A stretch of 32,767 nt of DNA from Candidatus Woesearchaeota archaeon (GTDB taxonomy: Archaea > Nanobdellota > Nanobdellia > Woesearchaeales > UBA10216). Positions 6,334 to 32,531 of the stretch are shown piece by piece. The notes beneath the pieces were generated by a model that did no database searches, had not been told where the DNA came from, and saw only the letters and a program-made list of their open reading frames with translations. Each line of letters starts with the position of its first letter. Position 1 is the stretch's first letter. Both the position numbers and the translations under genes were made by a program. Location: NCBI GenBank assembly GCA_016188205.1, contig JACPIG010000020.1:1-32767 (forward strand), read 5' to 3'.

Positions 6334-6393
6334 TTTCTGTTGCCGTTTGTATGTATGTGTTTGTGTTGGTGCTTGTGTGTGTTTTCCTCTTAA

Positions 6394-6423
6394 GCGGAAC
6401 TCCAGTAGTCAGCCCGCTATTAT
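6394..6423. repeat. Copy 1 of a perfect 30-bp direct repeat GCGGAACTCCAGTAGTCAGCCCGCTATTAT
   Basis: Exact match to 6607..6636, read directly from the sequence. Confidence 0.95.
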
Positions 6424-6466
6424 ATTAAATCGCATTAATTTTCGAACTTTTGATATGCGATTTAAT
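6424..6466. repeat. Hairpin a: 12-bp perfect inverted repeat ATTAAATCGCAT / ATGCGATTTAAT with a 19-nt loop containing TTTTCGA
   Basis: Read directly. Related in stem and loop sequence to hairpin b. Confidence 0.9.
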
Positions 6467-6469
6467 GTT

Positions 6470-6513
6470 TAGCAATTCGCACAAGATTTTTCGATAATTT
6501 ATGCGAATTGCTA
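6470..6513. repeat. Hairpin b: 12-bp perfect inverted repeat TAGCAATTCGCA / TGCGAATTGCTA with a 20-nt loop containing TTTTCGA
   Basis: Read directly. It forms a tandem pair with hairpin a. Confidence 0.9.
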
Positions 6514-6606
6514 TTAATTAGTTTTTAAATAGTATTTTGCATCAGGGGATTAATGCAGGTTTTGTTGTTCTGGGTTTTTCCTAATGCTTCTTTCTCGTCT
6601 CTTTTG

Positions 6607-6636
6607 GCGGAACTCCAGTAGTCAGCCCGCTATTAT
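6607..6636. repeat. Copy 2 of the perfect 30-bp direct repeat
   Basis: Exact match to 6394..6423. It lies 30 nt downstream of the moxR stop. Confidence 0.95.
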
Positions 6637-6665
6637 TTTTAGTCTGTTATTCAAACATTTCTATA

Positions 6666-7607
6666 CTACTTTGTCTTCTCAATCAGCTGTGTTATCGCGT
6701 CATCGGTTGTCATTCCTTTTCTTTCTGCCTCAAAGTTCAGTATGACCCTGTGCCTCAGTATGGGGTATGCCATCTTTGCAATATCTTCAGACGCAACGTG
6801 ATTCCTTCCGTTTATCAGCGCCCTTGCCTTTGCCGCGAGTATCAGCCCGATTGTTGCTCTTGGTGATGCTCCGTACTGTATGAGGTCAAAGTTCCTTGTC
6901 TTCGTCACCAGCTTCAAAATCTTCTCTTTAAGGTCTGAAGCTATCGGCACCTGCCTCGCATATCCTTGCAGCGCGAGCAGCTGTGTTTTGTCAAGCACTA
7001 TCTTCAGCCTTCTGTCTTTCAGCTCTGCGCCGTATCTGTTGACTATTTCCATTTCTTCCTGGTAGGTTGGGTAGCCGATCTTTATTTTCAAAAGAAATCT
7101 GTCTGCCTGTGCCTCAGGTAACGGATACGTTCCTTCCTGCTCAATGGGGTTTTGTGTTGCAAGCACGAAGAACGGCGCGTCCAGCTTGTATGTTGAGTTT
7201 CCTACTGTGACCTGCTTTTCCTGCATCGCTTCAAGAAGGGCGGATTGGGTTTTTGGCGTTGCCCTGTTTATCTCGTCAGCCAGCACTATGTTGGCGAATA
7301 TTGGGCCGGGGTGGAAGCGGAACTCCCTTTTGCCGCTTATCTCCTCTATGACGTATGTGCCTATTATGTCAGAGGGCATCAGGTCTGGCGTGTTCTGTAT
7401 CCTGCTGAACTTCAGGTCCATTATCCTTGCTATCGTCCTGACCATCATTGTCTTGGCCAGCCCGGGGTAGCCTTCAAGCAGCACGTTGCTGTCGCACAGC
7501 AGCGACACAAGTATCTGCTCTATGGCTTCCTGCTGCCCGACTATTATCTTGCTTATCTCTGCCTGCACGTCCTCAAATGTCTTTTTGTAAGCCTGCATTT
7601 CCATCAC
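6666..7607 (-). CDS. moxR: MoxR-family AAA+ ATPase
   Basis: 313 aa. Walker A GYPGLAKT, Walker B LADEINRA, and the whole sequence is collinear with MoxR/RavA-type ATPases. DUF58 and vWA genes sit in the same operon. Confidence 0.9.
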   Translation of the reverse strand: MMEMQAYKKTFEDVQAEISKIIVGQQEAIEQILVSLLCDSNVLLEGYPGLAKTMMVRTIARIMDLKFSRIQNTPDLMPSDIIGTYVIEEISGKREFRFHPGPIFANIVLADEINRATPKTQSALLEAMQEKQVTVGNSTYKLDAPFFVLATQNPIEQEGTYPLPEAQADRFLLKIKIGYPTYQEEMEIVNRYGAELKDRRLKIVLDKTQLLALQGYARQVPIASDLKEKILKLVTKTRNFDLIQYGASPRATIGLILAAKARALINGRNHVASEDIAKMAYPILRHRVILNFEAERKGMTTDDAITQLIEKTK

Positions 7608-14174: not shown

Positions 14175-15205
14175 ATTGAAATAACCTCAAAATTTGTAGG
14201 GGTGAGTTCCCACATTTTGTCCTCTCTCCTTTTTACCAAGCCAAGCCTCTCCAATTCTTTTAATCTTCTGAACGCAGCCGTCCAGCAAACACCAGCCTCA
14301 GAGGCAAGATCTTTGGTTCTTTGTGCATCATTGAGCAGCATATTTAAATATTTATACTTTATATGAGAAACAGGCACGAGTTTGCTATCCGCCAAGCCCC
14401 AATAATCAATGCTTCTGACCCTGTGGTTTTTCACAAGTCCTTCTTTTTTAAGTTCTACTAGTATGTCTGATATTCTTGCATTAGATCGATTAAACTGACT
14501 GGCCAGGGATTCACTGGTTGAGAAATCATTTCCTCTTAAGTTGTTGATTATTTTGTTCCTAAGTGAGAATTTCGTATAATGCATTTGCTTATACTCGGAA
14601 AGCATTAATTGGAACCGCGCTCTTTTTTCGGGATGCAAATCGGCTATTACGATGGCGGCAAGCTTGTCGAAATTCTCTTTGCCACTTATAATATACCCTT
14701 CTCTATGGCGATCGGAAAAAGTATAGTCTACTCCAAATAATTCCAAGGATTTCTCGATAGATCCGACTCTTTTGGATTGCGCCATTCTAATCACCCTGCA
14801 ATTATGTGAGCCGCATTTAATATTCCCTTCTCCTGCAAAAAACCCCCGCAGAATTCCTGGATAAGAATCGGCATCAAATTGAGTTGAATTGACTATTTCT
14901 TTCCATTTTTTAACAACCTCAACAGATGCCAATCGCCAAATGAAATATGGCTTACGCGCCCTCTTATCTATATAGTTCCTGATTTGAACATTTGAAAGAG
15001 GAATTTTTTGGAACTGTCCTGTAGAATTATACACATATATTCGAATCTTTAGATCGGCTACATTGAAAATTTCCACTATTGTTTTATGAAATAGTTCAAC
15101 TAACTCCCAGCAGCTATTTGTGAAAGTAATTTCTGCTTTTGTTTTATTGTCACCTTCTGCCAGCCACAATCCAACACATTCAGCTAATTTCTTGTCACGC
15201 GTCAT
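14171..15205 (-). CDS. Free-standing double-motif LAGLIDADG homing-endonuclease-like protein fused to two winged-helix DNA-binding modules
   Basis: Motif 1 is VGLWLAEGD and motif 2 is LRGFFAGEGN, about 100 aa apart. The C-terminal region has SLASQFNRSNARISDILVELKKEGLV and DLASEAGVCWTAAFRRLKELERLGLV. GC is lower than in the neighbours. Its stop overlaps the rnhB ATG (ATGA). Confidence 0.75.
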   Translation of the reverse strand: MTRDKKLAECVGLWLAEGDNKTKAEITFTNSCWELVELFHKTIVEIFNVADLKIRIYVYNSTGQFQKIPLSNVQIRNYIDKRARKPYFIWRLASVEVVKKWKEIVNSTQFDADSYPGILRGFFAGEGNIKCGSHNCRVIRMAQSKRVGSIEKSLELFGVDYTFSDRHREGYIISGKENFDKLAAIVIADLHPEKRARFQLMLSEYKQMHYTKFSLRNKIINNLRGNDFSTSESLASQFNRSNARISDILVELKKEGLVKNHRVRSIDYWGLADSKLVPVSHIKYKYLNMLLNDAQRTKDLASEAGVCWTAAFRRLKELERLGLVKRREDKMWELTPTNFEVISI

Positions 15206-16869: not shown

Positions 16870-19356
16870 ATGGAAAAAGAGGAGACATTCAGGCAGGAAG
16901 TTCAGGGAAAAAACTCGGGCAAAGGCATAAATGCCCCTGTCAGTTCTTTAGGTGAGGAGCTTGTCCTTGCAAAATCCGGCCTTTCAGTTTCGCGCGCAGA
17001 GATAAACTCCCTCGCCAGGCGGATTTCTGAGTTGGAAGAGCTCAACACCAAGCTAAGGGAACACATACTTCTGAGGGATTCCTTTGAGAGGAACCTGGAC
17101 AAGGAATACAAAAGGCAGCTCAGCCAGAAAGACGAGGTGATAAGAAGGCTTGCAGCACTCAGCACAAAAGATGCTCAGGCAGGAATATCAAACAGCACTT
17201 TGGCAGAAGCAAAGCCCGAGCCAGCCCAGGCAGATAGCCAGATTCAAACAAGCAGGGAAGAAGAGCTGAGAAGGCTTGGCGACCACTACAGGCAGAGAAG
17301 CGAAGCGCAGGAAAAGCTCTCCGCACAGCTGGCAGAGCAGCTCAACGACAAAAACACAGCCATACAGAGGCTCAAAGAGTTCGTTTCTGAGAGGGAAAAG
17401 CTGTCGCAGCAGATAGAGGAACAGCTGCAGAAGGAACTTGCTGAAAAGGAAGAAGAACTGAACAGCCTAAAGAGGGCTGGCAGCACAAGAACCGGCAGGG
17501 CTGCAACTTGGCTCAGGGAGCTTGAGCAGGCAAGACAGGAACTGAAGTTAAAGGAAGCAGAAGGCAGGAAGACTGTGCTTGAGCTTGTTGGCCTTAAGGA
17601 AACCGGGGCGATACTCGAAAGGAAGCTCAGGGACAGCGAACAGCAACTGCAGAAGCTGAAGGCAGAGAAAGAAAACCCCGTAGAGGACGAAAAAGCCAGC
17701 CAGCTGGCAAATAAGCTTCATGAGAAGGAAGAGGAAATCCGCCGCCTTACGAATTATTATGCTGACAAGGAACAGGCATACGAGGCAATACAGTTACAGC
17801 TTTCAGACCGCCTCAAGGAGAAAAACCGCGAAACAGAAAGGCTCAAAACATTCCTGGCAGAGAGGGAAGAGCTGTCGCAGAAGGTTGAAGAGCAGCTTCA
17901 AAAGGAAATAGCCGCAAAAGAGTCAGAGTTAAGTGAGCTCAGGCACACAAAAAGCCACGGAAAGGCGCTTATTCTCCAAAGGCAGCTTGAGCACGCATCA
18001 CAGGTCATCAGGCTGAAGGACTCAGCCAACAAAAAAATCCTGCTGGAGCTTGCCTCAGCCAAAGAAACAGGAGCCATACTCTCAAGAAAGCTGAAAGACG
18101 GGCAAGAGCACTCAGAAAGCCTGAAGGCGCAATATGAGAAGATAATTGGCACGATAAAGGCTGACAATGAAAGGATAATGAAAGGGCTCATAGGGGACTA
18201 CAACGCAAGGCTCGCGGCTGCAAAAACAGAAGCAGAGCGCACAAAGGCAGAGCTGTCGGCAAAGGAATCAGAGCTTCAAGTGCATAAGCAGCGCATAGAC
18301 GAGGCCATAAGGGAATTCGGCATAAGGGCGCAGACAGTCATATCCATGAGGGAAAGCATAGAGCCGCTTGAAAAAGCAGCAACACAGGCAGCAACGACAG
18401 CGGCAATCCAGGCAACGCAAGCTGCTCAGCAGGCAACACAGCAACAAGCAATCCCCACACAGGCTCCTGAATCCGGGCACGCAGAAACAATAACAAAAGA
18501 CGAGCTTGAGCAGTACGCCAGCAAGGCAAAGGTGCTGAGAGAAGCGCTCTACAGGAAGGACAGGGAGCTTACAAAAAGAGAAGCTGAGATGAGGCAGAAA
18601 GAGGAAGGGCTTTTATCAAGGGAAAAAGAAGTAAAGGCCATGATAACCACAGCAGAGCAGCGCCTCAAAGAGCTTGAAAGAAGAGAAGACTCAGGAGACA
18701 GAAAAGAGCAGATACTGCTAAAGCAGCAGGAGGCATTCAACCGCGAACTCCAAGCGCTTGAAGCAGCAGGAAGCAGGCTGACAATTGTGGAGTCAGAGCT
18801 GGAATCCCAGCTTACAGTCGCGGCAAGGCAGGCAGCCCCTTCAGTGACTCTGCCCACCCCATTCGCATCAGAACCTATCCAAATTCCCTCTGCGGCAAGA
18901 GAAGCGCCGCAGCAGCCGGAAAGCATAGCTGTAATGGAGCCTGTGCAGCAGAAAACCATTGAAGCAGGAGAAATAAAGGAAATAAAGCAGGAGAAGACGC
19001 TGTTGCAGAAGACAGAGCCAAAGCAGACAATGCCAAAGCCAGCACCAGCAACCGCAATACCCGCGATTAAAGCGCCAGCGATTAAGACATACACGCCAGA
19101 GCAGGCAGCCCCTATGCAAGCCAAGCCAAAGCAGCAACAGGCTTATCCGGCAACAGCACCAGAAAAACTTGCTGGCGGCTTAACCATCAACCTTGAAGAG
19201 CAAACCCTCGGCTACTCAGAAGTTGAAGAGGTAATGTCAATGATAGACGTTGCTATGCAGCACAAAGAAAGCATTGAGCAGATAAAGAACTCTCTTCTCG
19301 CATCAGGCTACTCAAAGGAAAACGTGGACAAGGCATTGAAAAAGATGAATCTTTAG
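16870..19356 (+). CDS. Long coiled-coil protein with an internal tandem duplication, Q/A/P-rich linker and a small C-terminal helical (UBA-like) domain
   Basis: 828 aa, rich in E/K/Q/L heptads. Two ~140-aa units align (RRLGDHYRQ...LKETGAILERKLRDSEQ vs RRLTNYYADKEQ...AKETGAILSRKLKDGQE). The C-terminal IKNSLLASGYSKENVDKALKKM is UBA-like by pattern only. Confidence 0.7.
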   Translation: MEKEETFRQEVQGKNSGKGINAPVSSLGEELVLAKSGLSVSRAEINSLARRISELEELNTKLREHILLRDSFERNLDKEYKRQLSQKDEVIRRLAALSTKDAQAGISNSTLAEAKPEPAQADSQIQTSREEELRRLGDHYRQRSEAQEKLSAQLAEQLNDKNTAIQRLKEFVSEREKLSQQIEEQLQKELAEKEEELNSLKRAGSTRTGRAATWLRELEQARQELKLKEAEGRKTVLELVGLKETGAILERKLRDSEQQLQKLKAEKENPVEDEKASQLANKLHEKEEEIRRLTNYYADKEQAYEAIQLQLSDRLKEKNRETERLKTFLAEREELSQKVEEQLQKEIAAKESELSELRHTKSHGKALILQRQLEHASQVIRLKDSANKKILLELASAKETGAILSRKLKDGQEHSESLKAQYEKIIGTIKADNERIMKGLIGDYNARLAAAKTEAERTKAELSAKESELQVHKQRIDEAIREFGIRAQTVISMRESIEPLEKAATQAATTAAIQATQAAQQATQQQAIPTQAPESGHAETITKDELEQYASKAKVLREALYRKDRELTKREAEMRQKEEGLLSREKEVKAMITTAEQRLKELERREDSGDRKEQILLKQQEAFNRELQALEAAGSRLTIVESELESQLTVAARQAAPSVTLPTPFASEPIQIPSAAREAPQQPESIAVMEPVQQKTIEAGEIKEIKQEKTLLQKTEPKQTMPKPAPATAIPAIKAPAIKTYTPEQAAPMQAKPKQQQAYPATAPEKLAGGLTINLEEQTLGYSEVEEVMSMIDVAMQHKESIEQIKNSLLASGYSKENVDKALKKMNL
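17266..18150 (+). repeat. Tandem ~435-nt (~140-aa) intragenic duplication within the coiled-coil gene
   Basis: Unit 1 is ~17266-17700 and unit 2 is ~17740-18150. They share the blocks ERLK.F..ERE.LSQ..EEQLQKE.A.KE.EL and L.ELV/A..KETGAIL.RKL.D. Confidence 0.75.
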
Positions 19357-20340: not shown

Positions 20341-21285
20341 CTAAGAAGGCGCTCTTACAATCTCAACAGTCTTTGAAATTGAGTCCCTGTAGCCGTACCT
20401 GAGCTTTACGCTCAGGGGCGTGTTGAATGCTGGCGTGTTCTTGAACCCTGCCATGTCCAGCTCGCAGAATACGCTGCGCTTTCCGCTGATAAGCTTAATC
20501 CTGCCGCTGGTAAGCGGCTTGCAGGTTGAGGTTATGTCGCGGTCAGCAACCCTGACTTCCTGCAGGCTTATCTCGTCAATCTCCTTGAAAGAAAGCCCTG
20601 CGCTGTAAGGATTGCAGTTCTGGCTGCCCTGCTCGTACACAGTTCCGCCGCCAGCATTTGAAACGCTGATAACAAACCTGAGCTTGTCCGTAGTGGGGTT
20701 AAGCTCAATCTTCGTGACTGCAACAGGAGCGCCCTGGCCTCCGGAAAGAGAAACGTCCTTTGTAGAGCAGACCTTCTGCTTTGAAGTCACGCCGAACGGG
20801 TCAGAATCAATGCACACAAGAGCAACAGCAAGAGTCTCGTAAGAATAGCACGAAGTCACCTGGATTGTCGGCTTGTAAGTGTCAATCCCCGGCTTGAGCG
20901 CAACATCCCCTGGAAACTCCTTAATCTCAAACTCGCCCTCAGGGTCAAAAGTGCCCCTGCCGCCAAGAGCGCCAATGCCGTCAGAAGTCTTCATGCCTGT
21001 AATTATGTTTGGGTCAAAGCCGGAAAGATAAACGTTTCCGCCGAACGTGCTGCCGTCAATGGTTGTTGCGCCGGCATTCTTGAGCTGCACAGCCACAGTG
21101 AACTTGCCCTCGCCCAGAAACCTCGCCGGAGGAGTTCCAGGCACAAAGCTCAGCACAAGTCCCTTTGTCCCTGTCCTGAACTTCTCAACGCCGCTCTTGG
21201 AATCCTTGATACCGACTTGACCCGTGCAGCCTGCAAACGCAACCATCAGCACCACAAGCAAAACAAAAACCAGCCTTTTATCCAT
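20341..21285 (-). CDS. Secreted lipoprotein, paralog family member 2
   Basis: Lipobox VAFAGC. SCYSYETLAVALVCIDSDP...KVCSTKDVSLSGGQGAPVAVTKIE is nearly collinear with member 3. Confidence 0.7.
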   Translation of the reverse strand: MDKRLVFVLLVVLMVAFAGCTGQVGIKDSKSGVEKFRTGTKGLVLSFVPGTPPARFLGEGKFTVAVQLKNAGATTIDGSTFGGNVYLSGFDPNIITGMKTSDGIGALGGRGTFDPEGEFEIKEFPGDVALKPGIDTYKPTIQVTSCYSYETLAVALVCIDSDPFGVTSKQKVCSTKDVSLSGGQGAPVAVTKIELNPTTDKLRFVISVSNAGGGTVYEQGSQNCNPYSAGLSFKEIDEISLQEVRVADRDITSTCKPLTSGRIKLISGKRSVFCELDMAGFKNTPAFNTPLSVKLRYGYRDSISKTVEIVRAPS

Positions 21286-21355
21286 TTTGAGAATTAATTA
21301 TCGGCTGCTTATTTAAATATTGCTGTTGAAAAGCGCAGAATCCAAAGATATAGAT

Positions 21356-22405
21356 TTATGCATCCGGAAAATTCCTCATCGACATCACACGAGGTCTTGG
21401 TGTAAGGTCAGTTAAAACCTTTATCGGGCCTGAGGCAAAGTAATTGGCCAACCCTGCCATGGTCGCGTCCCTGTCAACGGTGGGATGATAAGGAAATGTT
21501 CCCCTGATTCTCACAGCGCCGTCAGGATTCTTTTCAATGGCAACAAAAGCAAAATCGAGCAAGCCATGCACGCGTTCTGAATAAACAAATCCGTCCATTG
21601 TATGTGCGTTACCGCAGTAAACAATGGAATCCCTTGGGTCTTTTATCATATCACTAATCCAGCGCTCGCGCAGATTCTCCTCTCTGCGGGCGTTAAGAAG
21701 TTGAACCACGCCAGCAGCCCCATTAGAGCCGGTAATAGCTGCGAGTCTCTCTGTCTGAACTCCGGTCAATTTCAGGTAAATGTCCTGTTCAAACGGGCAT
21801 AAACGCACGTCTACCCGGGTTTTTGCCGCTTCGTGGCTATAAGCCTGGACTGCAAGCATTGCGGCAAGCATCTCGTCATCCACGTTTCCAAGATCAACAA
21901 AAAACTCAGGAACAATGGCCATTTCAGCACGTTGTTCCTCCAGCATGTCGGGCTCATTCACGCCATATTGTGATAAGATTTTTCTTTCAGCTCTGCGAAC
22001 TTTCTTTTCGCCAAGGATTGAGACCATGCCTTCCAAATCTTCTCTTGTGTGGGTAAATGAGGATAGGGTTCGCCAGCCTATGTCTATAGGCGGCATGGGT
22101 GGAACGCTGCCATGCGAAGATCGCTTTAATTCCTTCAGATACCCACCAACCAAGCCTCTCATCAGCCCGCAGTCATTTTCTGTCCAGCCGTCGGCATACA
22201 GGTTAACAGGGCTATATATGGCAGAAGCAATTGTCAGAAACAGGTTTCTGACATAAACTACGTCATGAAGTTCCCTGAGTTGAGAATAAGCGGATTGCAT
22301 GCTTTCAGCCATCTGAAAATGCGGGCTTTGGACAACCAAAACCAAGGGCATTAATCCAGCTGGAGTTTCTGTCGCCGATGGATTTGCTGTTGCCATTAAT
22401 CCCAA
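21356..22405 (-). CDS. Hypothetical soluble protein (349 aa) embedded among the lipoprotein paralogs
   Basis: Long ORF with no TM helix or signal peptide. Weak motif-level resemblance only (LVLVVQSPHFQMAESMQS ... VYCGNAHT) to TraB/ChaN/Tiki-type folds. Confidence 0.55.
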   Translation of the reverse strand: MGLMATANPSATETPAGLMPLVLVVQSPHFQMAESMQSAYSQLRELHDVVYVRNLFLTIASAIYSPVNLYADGWTENDCGLMRGLVGGYLKELKRSSHGSVPPMPPIDIGWRTLSSFTHTREDLEGMVSILGEKKVRRAERKILSQYGVNEPDMLEEQRAEMAIVPEFFVDLGNVDDEMLAAMLAVQAYSHEAAKTRVDVRLCPFEQDIYLKLTGVQTERLAAITGSNGAAGVVQLLNARREENLRERWISDMIKDPRDSIVYCGNAHTMDGFVYSERVHGLLDFAFVAIEKNPDGAVRIRGTFPYHPTVDRDATMAGLANYFASGPIKVLTDLTPRPRVMSMRNFPDA

Positions 22406-22445
22406 TGGTATTCTTGAACTTTATATTTTTTGTGCTAAACACCGC

Positions 22446-23462
22446 TTAATACCCAACCTCCCTTGTAACAGTTACTTCTTTGGAAATCGTTGTTGTGTAC
22501 CCGTAATTAAAGGTTATTGTGAGCGGGGATGTGTAGCTTGGGATTGATGCGTCAATCTTGTCCTCGTCTTTTAGGCTGCACCGAACAAAATCCTCCTTGG
22601 AGCGAAGCCTTATGGGGTTCGGGGAGCAAACAAGCTCCTTGCCTGAGAGGGAAGCGGAAACTGTTGCGATGTTCCAAATCCTCTTGAAAGCCTCTGAGTC
22701 TCGGTTTGAGACAAGTTCGGAAGAGCATGCAGAGCTCATGTCAGCCGAAGGGTTGAGCACTTCGCCGTCGCCAGTGTTCTTGATGTAAATAACATATTGT
22801 GGCTTTACAAACGCAATCCTTTCCCCGCTGCCCTCAGGAAAAATCTTTGCTTCAATCTTGGTAACAGCCAAAGGAGCGCCCTGGCCTCCTGAGAGAGAAG
22901 CGTCCTTCACAGAGCAGACCTTCTTTTTCTGGGACAAGCCAAGCACGTCAGTGTCTATGCACACATCAGTCTTTACGTCTGTCCTGTACTTGTAGCACAA
23001 TGTAGCGAGAACTATTGACTTGTGCTTTTCAGACTGCCCCTCCCTGAATGGCTTTGTGGAGCCGTCAAAAACCTCGATGCCGCTGTCGCCTCCGGGGTTG
23101 AAGATGCTTTTGCCCTTAAGCGAAAAAGCGGTTTTGAAGCTGTCAAGCTTCATGTAGTCCTCCTCAGACGTCAGCACAACCCACCCGTCCTCAACGTCAA
23201 AAGCGCCCTTGTTGCTGAGCTTCAGAGCTGCCTTGAAAGGATAGCTTCCCCCACTCTTGAAAGGCGCAAGAAGCTCTGCAGGAGGCGCATTGGGAAGAAA
23301 CTCAACCTTCACTCCCTCAGTTCCGCTGTGCACAGCAGCATAAGTAAATGGCAGCTTTGCGCTTACATCCTTGTCACCCCCTTTTCCAGGGCTGCCTGAG
23401 CAGCCTGATATAAACACCGCCAGCACTACCAAAAACACAATAGTTAGGCTCTTCATCATCAC
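22446..23462 (-). CDS. Secreted lipoprotein, paralog family member 3
   Basis: Lipobox VFISGC. Contains LCYKYRTDVKTDVCIDTDV...KVCSVKDASLSGGQGAPLAVTKIE and the terminal FNYGYTTTISKEVTV. Confidence 0.7.
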   Translation of the reverse strand: MMMKSLTIVFLVVLAVFISGCSGSPGKGGDKDVSAKLPFTYAAVHSGTEGVKVEFLPNAPPAELLAPFKSGGSYPFKAALKLSNKGAFDVEDGWVVLTSEEDYMKLDSFKTAFSLKGKSIFNPGGDSGIEVFDGSTKPFREGQSEKHKSIVLATLCYKYRTDVKTDVCIDTDVLGLSQKKKVCSVKDASLSGGQGAPLAVTKIEAKIFPEGSGERIAFVKPQYVIYIKNTGDGEVLNPSADMSSACSSELVSNRDSEAFKRIWNIATVSASLSGKELVCSPNPIRLRSKEDFVRCSLKDEDKIDASIPSYTSPLTITFNYGYTTTISKEVTVTREVGY

Positions 23463-25598: not shown

Positions 25599-25634
25599 CT
25601 TTCTTTTGAGAGACAAAGTCAACTAACGAGTGAT

Positions 25635-25737
25635 AGCCAAGCTGAGCCCTTGTCAATAACAAGGGTTACTTTGTTTCCCCCTCGCTTACCGTGGGGGAGA
25701 CAAAGTAAGTTCAGCATTACTGAACCTCAGCTTGGCT
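25635..25737 (+). ncRNA. Cloverleaf/four-way-junction element, copy A (unclassified)
   Basis: Closing stem AGCCAAGCTGAG/CTCAGCTTGGCT (12 bp). H1 is CCCTTG-TCAATAA-CAAGGG. H2 is TTACTTTGTTTCCCCC-TCGCTTACCGT-GGGGGAGACAAAGTAA (16 bp with one T.G). H3 is GTTCAG-CATTA-CTGAAC. There are no unpaired junction nucleotides. The strand was chosen because the single wobble is G.U only on the plus strand. Confidence 0.55.
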
Positions 25738-25805
25738 TTAATCAACAGTTTTGCCAATCAACTTGACTTCACCCTTTTAAGAACCAGCCCGGCATTCGTG
25801 ATTGA

Positions 25806-31603: not shown

Positions 31604-31678
31604 AAAAGAAGCCAGGGGCGTTTATAAATGTTTTTGCAGCGTGACACTGTAAAGTGTACGTGATATTGATAAACGATG

Positions 31679-31779
31679 TTGTCGGCTGCGGTTAGCTCAA
31701 AGCTAACTTATTTTCTCTCCCCCACGGTAAGCGAGGGGGAGAGAAAATAACCTGAGCATTGCTCAGGCGCAGCCGACAA
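31679..31779 (-). ncRNA. Cloverleaf/four-way-junction element, copy B (inverted relative to copy A)
   Basis: Plus-strand reading: TTGTCGGCTGCG | GTTAGC-TCAAA-GCTAAC | TTATTTTCTCTCCCCC-ACGGTAAGCGA-GGGGGAGAGAAAATAA | CCTGAGC-ATT-GCTCAGG | CGCAGCCGACAA. All stems are perfect. The apical 21-mer is the exact reverse complement of that in copy A. Confidence 0.55.
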
Positions 31780-31877
31780 ATCCGAAGTGGCATATCACGA
31801 AAAGGTGACAATGCCGCATAAAGGAAAAATTATTAAACAATACTCCACCCTGATAGAAGCAGCCAAGACTGTAAGCG

Positions 31878-32183
31878 TTGGAAAGGCAAATGAAAAAGTT
31901 AGAAGAACTTCAAAAGAAGCTCTCTCAAAACAAGAATATGCTAAGGGAGAAGTATTATGTCAAAAGCATAGGCATATTCGGCTCTTTTGCAAGAGGGGAG
32001 CAGAAAAAGGGCAGCGATATAGATGTGTTAATAGAATTCAACAGGCCCATAAGTTTTTTCAAGTTTATTGAACTGGAAAATTGTCTTGGCGAACTTTTGG
32101 GCGCAAAGGTTGATTTAGTTTCAAAGAAGGCGCTTAGGCCATATATAGGCGGGCGAATATTGAAAGAAGTTGTAAATGTATGA
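31878..32183 (+). CDS. MNT-type nucleotidyltransferase (antitoxin-like partner of HEPN)
   Basis: GIFGSFARGEQKKGSDIDVLIEF matches the minimal NTase motif G-S-x-A-R-G-x(n)-D-x-D. Confidence 0.85.
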   Translation: MERQMKKLEELQKKLSQNKNMLREKYYVKSIGIFGSFARGEQKKGSDIDVLIEFNRPISFFKFIELENCLGELLGAKVDLVSKKALRPYIGGRILKEVVNV

Positions 32184-32189
32184 GGGGAG

Positions 32190-32531
32190 ATGAGAGATTA
32201 CAGGGATTACATCAGCGACATTTGGGAATCCATAAGCGACATAGAGAATTTTGCAGCCGGTCTGAACTTCAATGATTTTCTAAAGGATAAAAAAACAATA
32301 AACGCCACCATAAGAAGCCTCGAAATAATCGGTGAAGCGGCAAAGAAAATACCGAACAGAATAAGGGCAAAATACCCCGAAATTCCATGGCAAGAAATTG
32401 CTGGCATGAGGGACAAACTCATTCACGAATATCATGGAGTGGACTTGGAAATTGTCTGGACAGTTATAAAGGAGGACTTGCTCCCTTTAAAGTCCAATAT
32501 TAAAAGGCTTGTTAAGGATTACGGTGTGTAA
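32190..32531 (+). CDS. HEPN domain protein (DUF86 type, toxin-like)
   Basis: R-x4-H motif in MRDKLIHEYHGVD. Lies 6 nt downstream of the NTase gene. Confidence 0.85.
   Translation: MRDYRDYISDIWESISDIENFAAGLNFNDFLKDKKTINATIRSLEIIGEAAKKIPNRIRAKYPEIPWQEIAGMRDKLIHEYHGVDLEIVWTVIKEDLLPLKSNIKRLVKDYGV

Follow-up and report, generated by a model that had tools for sequence, protein, structure and literature searches.

A cloverleaf-shaped intergenic repeat of a Woesearchaeota genome is probably an insertion of a small, non-coding MITE

The question raised by this locus is whether a cloverleaf, found once at positions 31679-31779 and again at 25635-25737 of the same contig, is an RNA gene, a DNA site used by the host, or a piece of mobile DNA. 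The stretch analysed, referred to below as the window, comprises 32,767 nucleotides of a Candidatus Woesearchaeota archaeon (contig JACPIG010000020.1). Its gene content is archaeal and includes pelota/eRF1, GatA, translin, RFC, RNase HII and an MNT/HepT toxin-antitoxin pair. An earlier note on this DNA had preferred selection on the fold, acting on a structured RNA or on a protein-recognised DNA cruciform, to an ordinary MITE. The fold has indeed been kept through compensated changes, but the contrast with a MITE fails: the copy at 31679-31779 (copy B) is probably one insertion of a low-copy, non-coding, non-autonomous MITE that occurs in some Woesearchaeota (DPANN archaea).

All the sequence details that had been claimed for 31679-31779 are present, including the arm-for-arm match with the second cloverleaf, copy A. 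The features needed to follow the structure are these:

31679-31779, minus strand: cloverleaf core of copy B, as given by folds and covariance model; its arms are a 12-bp closing stem, a 7-bp hairpin, a 16-bp long arm and a 7-bp hairpin
31719-31739, minus strand: apical 21-mer CCCCC-T-CG-CTTAC-CG-T-GGGGG, identical in copies A, B and L006; its inner loop is inverted in L001-L003
25635-25737, plus strand: cloverleaf core of copy A, with its tip at 25677-25697

Read on the minus strand, the closing stem of copy B is formed by TTGTCGGCTGCG pairing with CGCAGCCGACAA. The CC hairpin is CCTGAGC-AAT-GCTCAGG, the long arm is TTATTTTCTCTCCCCC-TCGCTTACCGT-GGGGGAGAGAAAATAA, and the GTT hairpin is GTTAGC-TTTGA-GCTAAC. 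Both copies fold into a four-way junction with zero unpaired junction bases, on either strand and with RNA or DNA parameters. The MFE of copy B is -67.9/-69.0 kcal/mol with RNA parameters and about -46 with DNA parameters, corresponding to z-scores of -12 to -14; for copy A it is -63.6/-62.0 kcal/mol (RNA parameters), with z-scores of -10 to -12. Not one of 200 shuffles was equally stable in either case. An RNAfold scan of ~100 kb returned the known element copies as the most stable 130-nt windows. With a junction scanner written for the purpose, which seeks three abutting hairpins closed by a stem, A and B were the sole matches in 185 kb, and 3 shuffles gave 0.

The two cloverleaves agree in plan and differ in much of their sequence. 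Their closing stems, previously described as unrelated, are identical at 5 of 12 positions and differ otherwise, and the stem of copy A has a clear homologue in a copy from another genome. The two compensated substitutions reported for the long arm (C:G in A to T:A in B, and G:C to C:G) are real; at a third position, A has T.G where B has C:G. The identity of the 21-nt tip in A and B also stands, as the window contains exactly two occurrences of the 21-mer CCCCCTCGCTTACCGTGGGGG, where 0 would be expected. This tip is kept between genomes whose GatA proteins are only about 71% identical.

Relatives of the element were sought by pattern and by structure. A scan for CCCCCNCGCTTACCGNGGGGG in one genome per species gave four true matches, all of them in Woesearchaeota MAGs; two of the six genome matches to the tip pattern were due to chance and lacked the cloverleaf architecture. 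Metagenome matches to the tip, at six loci, were likewise all chance, lying in bacterial DNA of 61-70% GC without the architecture. A viral scan for the tip gave no match, and blastn against phage and plasmid collections gave no match to the element. The covariance-model search that the earlier note had proposed was carried out with a single-sequence model built from B. This model was used because MAFFT misaligned the closing stems, and it also supplied the structural alignment. It found exactly six copies in three Woesearchaeota genomes, at 67-119 bits and on both strands, and nothing beyond these six in ~177 kb of DNA from Woesearchaeota, even when the search filters were switched off for the window. 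The score of copy B itself is 119.5 bits when read on the minus strand and falls to 95.4 bits on the plus strand.

The six copies lie at six unrelated loci. Copy numbers are low in the DNA examined: two in the window, three in JACPTE01 (assembly GCA_016192945.1; L001-L003) and one in JACPIJ01 (L006). The same five-helix plan recurs in all of them, in the order closing stem (10-12 bp), CC hairpin, long arm, GTT hairpin and other half of the closing stem, the long arm being a 16-bp pyrimidine/purine helix that ends in the apical sequence listed above. Identity among the three JACPTE01 copies is 96-100% over 121-163 nt; two are truncated, at opposite ends. They adjoin genes for OMP decarboxylase, class I LysRS and a P-type ATPase. 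The full-length one (L024 3934-4124, equivalent to L003 7553-7743) lies within an OGG_N glycosylase gene, three codons ahead of the stop.

Some details of these loci deserve a record of their own. In the OGG_N glycosylase gene, the reading frame stays open across the entire element, which adds ~70 aa of foreign sequence to the protein; the native end would be ...PKQKPPQTI(stop). At L002 880-985, Rfam finds a 106-nt tRNA that ARAGORN misses and that presumably contains an intron; it ends ~16 nt from the element, which in turn lies ~45 nt upstream of the class I LysRS start. The copy in JACPIJ01 (L006 5185-5376) has ~49 nt of its 3' part duplicated internally in tandem, a segment covering GTT hairpin, closing stem and outer repeat, and is located 1.3 kb upstream of a 16S-tRNA-23S operon.

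The structural alignment allows the covariation to be judged across the family. Two-sided changes affect 22 of 44 pairs, a thin statistic in that only four independent copies enter it; the covariation claimed between A and B is nonetheless real and extensive, and the view that they are not two recent copies of one sequence holds. RNAalifold counts 10 compensated pairs, even on a poor alignment. Among the pair cells, 168 are Watson-Crick versus 2 that are G.T, and the few remaining non-pairs are positions beyond the shorter stem. The wobbles, one G.T each in the long arms of A and L006, make up ~1% of pairs. L003 carries a fresh uncompensated G.A mismatch, which implies that single copies decay. 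In all three JACPTE01 copies, with the CC and GTT hairpins taken as reference, the 5-nt loop reads GTAAG in place of CTTAC. This inversion spans the 5-9-nt apex and leaves the flanking T...T mismatch unmoved. A lineage that multiplied after such an inversion speaks against a strand-specific RNA and for a DNA-level constraint on the element, with the reservation that only L003 among the flipped-loop copies has verifiable duplications. Together, the scarcity of wobbles, the two-sided changes, the conserved tip and the flipped loop point to a DNA-level constraint in the element lineage and not to a host RNA.

The limits of the element provide the next piece of evidence. The interval 31679-31779 is correct for the core; the element itself is wider and includes an outer 8-bp inverted repeat, with 9-bp direct repeats around it.

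31650-31804, minus strand: full copy B, 155 nt, in the orientation CC-hairpin, long arm, GTT-hairpin; bounded by direct repeats
31641-31649, no strand: left target-site duplication of B, GTGACACTG; 8/9 match to 31805-31813, 9 nt outside the outer inverted repeat
31805-31813, no strand: right target-site duplication of B, GTGACAATG; direct repeat of 31641-31649
31659-31666, no strand: left arm of the outer (subterminal) inverted repeat of B, CGTGATAT; perfect complement of 31792-31799
31792-31799, no strand: right arm of the outer inverted repeat of B, ATATCACG; pairs with 31659-31666
25612-25773, plus strand: full copy A, 162 nt, delimited by fold, covariance model, direct repeats and excision
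25616-25622 and 25763-25769: outer inverted repeat of A, AAGTCAA and TTGACTT
25603-25611, no strand: left target-site duplication of A, CTTTTGAGA; 8/9 match to 25774-25782
25774-25782, no strand: right target-site duplication of A, CTTTTAAGA, identified by direct repeat and excision

Corresponding direct repeats flank L003 (CGGTGGCTT, twice) and L006 (CATTCCAAAC, twice). The repeats of A, B, L003 and L006 measure 9, 9, 9 and 10 bp, each copy has a different one, and in these four independent copies they sit 4-9 nt outside the outer inverted repeat. Compared with shuffles, the per-copy p values are 0.011 (A), 0.030 (B), 0.006 (L003) and 0.0002 (L006), or 8e-7 when combined by Fisher's method; these tests were confined to 22 nt on each side, with boundaries picked after inspection and, for L006, the choice between two ends also made after looking. 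The repeats of A and B match at 8/9 positions only, with a single-copy p of about 0.01-0.03.

Inside these boundaries, every copy has a perfect inverted repeat of 7-11 bp located 4-9 nt from the element ends (AAGTCAA in A, CGTGATAT in B, TTGAAAACCTC in L003 and TGAAATCCTCG in L006), and an internal loop lies between it and the core. Imperfect pairing reaches the ends in L003 (about 14/17) and L006 (about 15/19). The inverted repeats of A, B and L003/L006 have no common motif; those of L003 and L006 are alike (TGAAA[A/T]CCTC). The idea of a "molecular ruler", with ends at a fixed distance from the core, was rejected, as the core-end distances are 22-37 and 18-36 nt. The element is described as about 145-175 bp in size, and the copies examined for coding capacity measure 155-192 bp. 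No reading frame is open in all copies, so the element lacks coding capacity, and a coding-compatible insertion of the Rickettsia-palindromic-element type was rejected for the same reason.

The orthologous sites in related genomes bear directly on mobility. The region of the window is syntenic in five relatives, all Woesearchaeota, with GatA identities of 69-82%, the best being 82%. The HerA-translin spacer, which harbours copy B in the window, is 78-103 bp long in all five and lacks the element. The orthologous sites without the element comprise four plain short spacers and one with an unrelated MITE. JACPTE01, although it owns three copies elsewhere, is syntenic with the window and has the element at neither window site. 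For copy A, the deletion of 25603-25773 (the element plus one repeat) leaves the 42-nt sequence ATTATAAATCTTTCTTTTAAGAACCAGCCCGGCATTCGTGAT, which is identical to the relative L013 minus the MITE that L013 itself carries. This A site in L013 is occupied by the other MITE at the same spot, so the exact match requires that MITE to be removed. A naturally unoccupied A site exists in L025, which is more diverged than L013. The presence of a different MITE at the exact spot of copy A marks this spacer as an insertion hotspot. No unoccupied counterpart of the L003 site was found among P-type ATPase relatives, the next of which is only 63% identical.

The MITE of L013 belongs to a second, unrelated multi-hairpin family (TTCAAnAGAAATCCGAC...GGAATATTTTTATTAAA), with three copies in 21 kb (1804-2008; 6721-6873, reverse; 15003-15154), one of which has a larger nested insert. 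DPANN genomes, a Woesearchaeon included, are reported to have the highest MITE densities among archaea (PMC11602168), and the three copies of this second family in L013 are in keeping with this.

Other repeats and insertions occur in the window. The MNT/HepT pair (31890-32531) stands between translin and HerA in this genome only, where the five syntenic relatives have just their short spacer; HerA follows 3 nt after HepT, and the promoter seen in the relatives is lost. The DUF58-MoxR intergenic region (6334-6665) contains a 38-nt direct repeat (6394-6431 and 6607-6644, 92% identical) that brackets two perfect palindromes, TTAAATCGCAT...ATGCGATTTAA and TAGCAATTCGCA...TGCGAATTGCTA, and may represent a pair of operators or a further small repeat element. 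Diverged internal repeats are present at 17325-17921 (126 nt, 72% identical, 471 nt apart), within an ORF of 828 aa that has no match in Pfam. Finally, two neighbouring ORFs of about 314-338 aa at 20705-22965 share a 114-nt similarity (77%), which suggests from sequence that they are paralogues.

MITEs are defined as short (<500 bp) elements without coding capacity and with TIRs of about 4-30 bp; they are flanked by direct repeats that vary among the copies, are dispersed in several copies whose presence differs from one related genome to another, and share their ends with a related autonomous element or transposase (PMC10969869). It had been held that near-identical copies with target-site duplications would mean an ordinary MITE, and this is largely what was found: four copies have duplications of their own, the orthologous sites are free of the element, and the near-identical JACPTE01 copies occupy unrelated loci. 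The family is new; the kind of element is already known. Neither the window nor any of the annotated loci yielded a transposase or a parent insertion sequence. Target duplications of 8-10 bp are made by the IS4, IS5/IS903, IS1, IS256 and ISAs1 families.

It is quite unlikely that the cloverleaf is instead the functional fold of a small structured RNA gene, or of a cis-acting RNA element, present in several copies. The loop CUUAC would then be a recognition site, and the flanking repeats would be incidental or the RNA would be MITE-borne. The strong covariation would suit such an RNA, as would the fact that both wobbles fall on one strand, namely that reading from CC-hairpin to GTT-hairpin, and the TATA-like boxes found 40-55 nt upstream of A, B and L006 in this same orientation. 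A mobile repeat that is transcribed and has a compensated structure is known in bcr1, as PMC3184786 describes it. Yet a wobble share of ~1% is far below what is usual for structured RNAs, and two wobbles on the same strand have a chance of 0.5. Both strands fold equally well. The TATA boxes lie 16, 22 and 30 nt from the outer stem and, where checked, are promoters of neighbouring genes transcribed in the direction away from the element; on account of this and the inconsistent spacing, a promoter belonging to the element itself was rejected. No consistent oligo-T terminator follows the element, one copy is inside a coding region, and positions are not conserved between genomes. In JACPTE01, moreover, the apical loop is switched to the other strand with respect to the side hairpins, so one strand cannot yield the same RNA in all genomes. 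The variable promoter distance, missing terminator, strand symmetry, flipped loop and unconserved positions speak against an independent small-RNA gene. Rfam 15 has no family matching at the gathering threshold and, at E<=10, only a chance miRNA match of 23.8 bits against a gathering score of 100. A tRNA or tRNA-like structure was rejected as well, since neither ARAGORN nor Rfam reports one and the arms measure 12, 7, 16 and 7 bp without junction bases. Nothing here shows the cloverleaf to be a structured-RNA gene.

A DNA site in the service of the host is also unlikely. A host protein would bind the cruciform or the 21-bp tip and host selection would keep it, for example to insulate or tune the divergent promoters flanking copy B; a regulator, a chromatin protein or a recombination protein would be candidate binders. 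Copy B is placed exactly between the promoters of translin and of MNT/HepT/HerA, and the TATA box of a neighbouring gene lies 17-30 nt away from A, L001 and L003. The tip does not vary between genomes in which the surrounding intergenic DNA is unalignable, the element is symmetric on both strands, and its tolerance of the loop flip fits recognition as duplex or cruciform. On the other hand, the element is absent at these sites in all close relatives, which implies that the host thrives in its absence. No feature is shared by the neighbouring genes, one copy truncates the C-terminus of a gene, and single copies gather uncompensated defects and truncations. The proximity to promoters loses weight in compact genomes, which tolerate insertions in few places besides promoter-containing spacers. 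Very improbable, and largely refuted, is a substrate of site-specific recombination, such as an integron attC-like or attachment site, coupled to the MNT/HepT cassette. Integrons often carry toxin-antitoxin cassettes, and B and MNT/HepT are both missing from the translin-HerA spacer of the relatives, so that together they look like one insertion of ~900 bp. The closest relative of the MNT protein (72% identity), however, has the MNT/HepT pair with no cloverleaf upstream, more distant MNT relatives have unrelated upstream DNA, and copy A and the four copies elsewhere have no such cassette alongside. Copy B has its own 9-bp duplication, and the flanking repeats differ from copy to copy, which makes them target-derived and not an att core. 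The base of the structure has no RYYYAAC/GTTRRRY core sites, no AAC...GTT and no extrahelical bases; a cassette array and an integrase are lacking too. A likeness to archaeal origins (the ORB G-string) was dismissed, as it amounts to a common G5 run, with no orc1/cdc6 gene nearby.

The reading of copy B as a MITE insertion still has to account for the preservation of its fold. As nested perfect palindromes, the centre of the element would form a four-way junction on cruciform extrusion or in a single-stranded copy. A transposase acting in trans may make 9-bp staggered cuts in the target, giving each copy its direct repeat of 9-10 bp. The fold and the 21-mer would be kept within the element lineage and not by the host, since only intact copies would be propagated. 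The tip is most plausibly a binding site of a mobilising or architectural protein, and would be read on duplex or cruciform DNA, given that the flipped-loop lineage still multiplied. The "protein-recognised DNA" half of the earlier proposal may hold. Template switching turns quasi-palindromes perfect and inverts hairpin loops. Such switching within a strand, between the arms of the palindrome, may have added to the two-sided changes.

A conserved centre with differing ends is the reverse of the usual MITE pattern. The unlike ends, the lack of a fixed end-core distance and the missing transposase leave room for a centrally recognised core. It is thus conceivable, if unlikely, that the cloverleaf core and the 21-mer constitute the functional unit, a four-way junction of DNA (or RNA) that a protein recognises at its centre and that travels between ends of unrelated sequence. 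If this were true, a structured site in the middle, and not the terminal repeats, would be what mobilisation or a host function relies on, and DPANN archaea would possess an unusual transposition substrate or a functional module borne by a MITE.

Several known systems resemble the element in part. One of the closest analogues is bcr1, a MITE-like repeat of about 155 bp in the Bacillus cereus group, which according to the account in PMC3184786 (after Klevan et al. 2007) shares its size, its non-conserved distribution and its flanking repeats. In that account, compensatory changes keep a cruciform-like structure in bcr1 while single copies lose stability, as here; bcr1 differs in having 5-bp repeats, in being bacterial and in having been shown to be transcribed (PMC3184786). 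The element described here has 9-10-bp repeats, a DPANN host, a perfect four-way junction and an invariant 21-mer. The Chunjie MITE of Geobacter uraniireducens measures 178-235 bp, with 21-bp TIRs and 9-bp direct repeats (PMC3184786). It resembles our element in its 9-bp duplications, similar length, very stable predicted fold and the overlap of some copies with protein genes. In contrast, Chunjie has long conserved TIRs, whereas here the ends vary and the centre is conserved, and there is no sequence similarity between the two. The Correia elements of Neisseria and the ERIC elements of enterobacteria are also small palindromic intergenic MITEs near promoters, but they fold as single long hairpins, duplicate a TA target, reach hundreds of copies and have conserved TIRs. 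Correia elements carry a central site for the architectural protein IHF, so that conservation of the centre has a precedent. PMC3184786 makes mention of IHF.

REP/REPIN elements (RAYT) and derivatives of IS200/IS605 are likewise extragenic palindromes in which the enzyme recognises a conserved hairpin and not a terminal repeat. They depend on single-strand HUH transposases and leave no target duplication, for which reason membership in either group fails here. The loop of our element contains TTAC, the target tetranucleotide of IS608, and this is only a lead. REPs carry a GTAG or CGTC head (PMC3733652). The element has no such head and does have target duplications, which argues further against a place in the REP/REPIN-RAYT group.

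What appeared to be a novel cloverleaf RNA thus becomes a mobile-element annotation, and a false RNA-gene call in a poorly known archaeal group is avoided. A MITE family of Woesearchaeota is documented with precise boundaries, target duplications and reconstructed pre-insertion sites. Its conserved centre, variable ends and flipped loop pose a small but genuine puzzle as to what the mobilising machinery recognises. More generally, perfect compensatory covariation can arise in a lineage of selfish DNA palindromes, so covariation alone is no proof of a host RNA.
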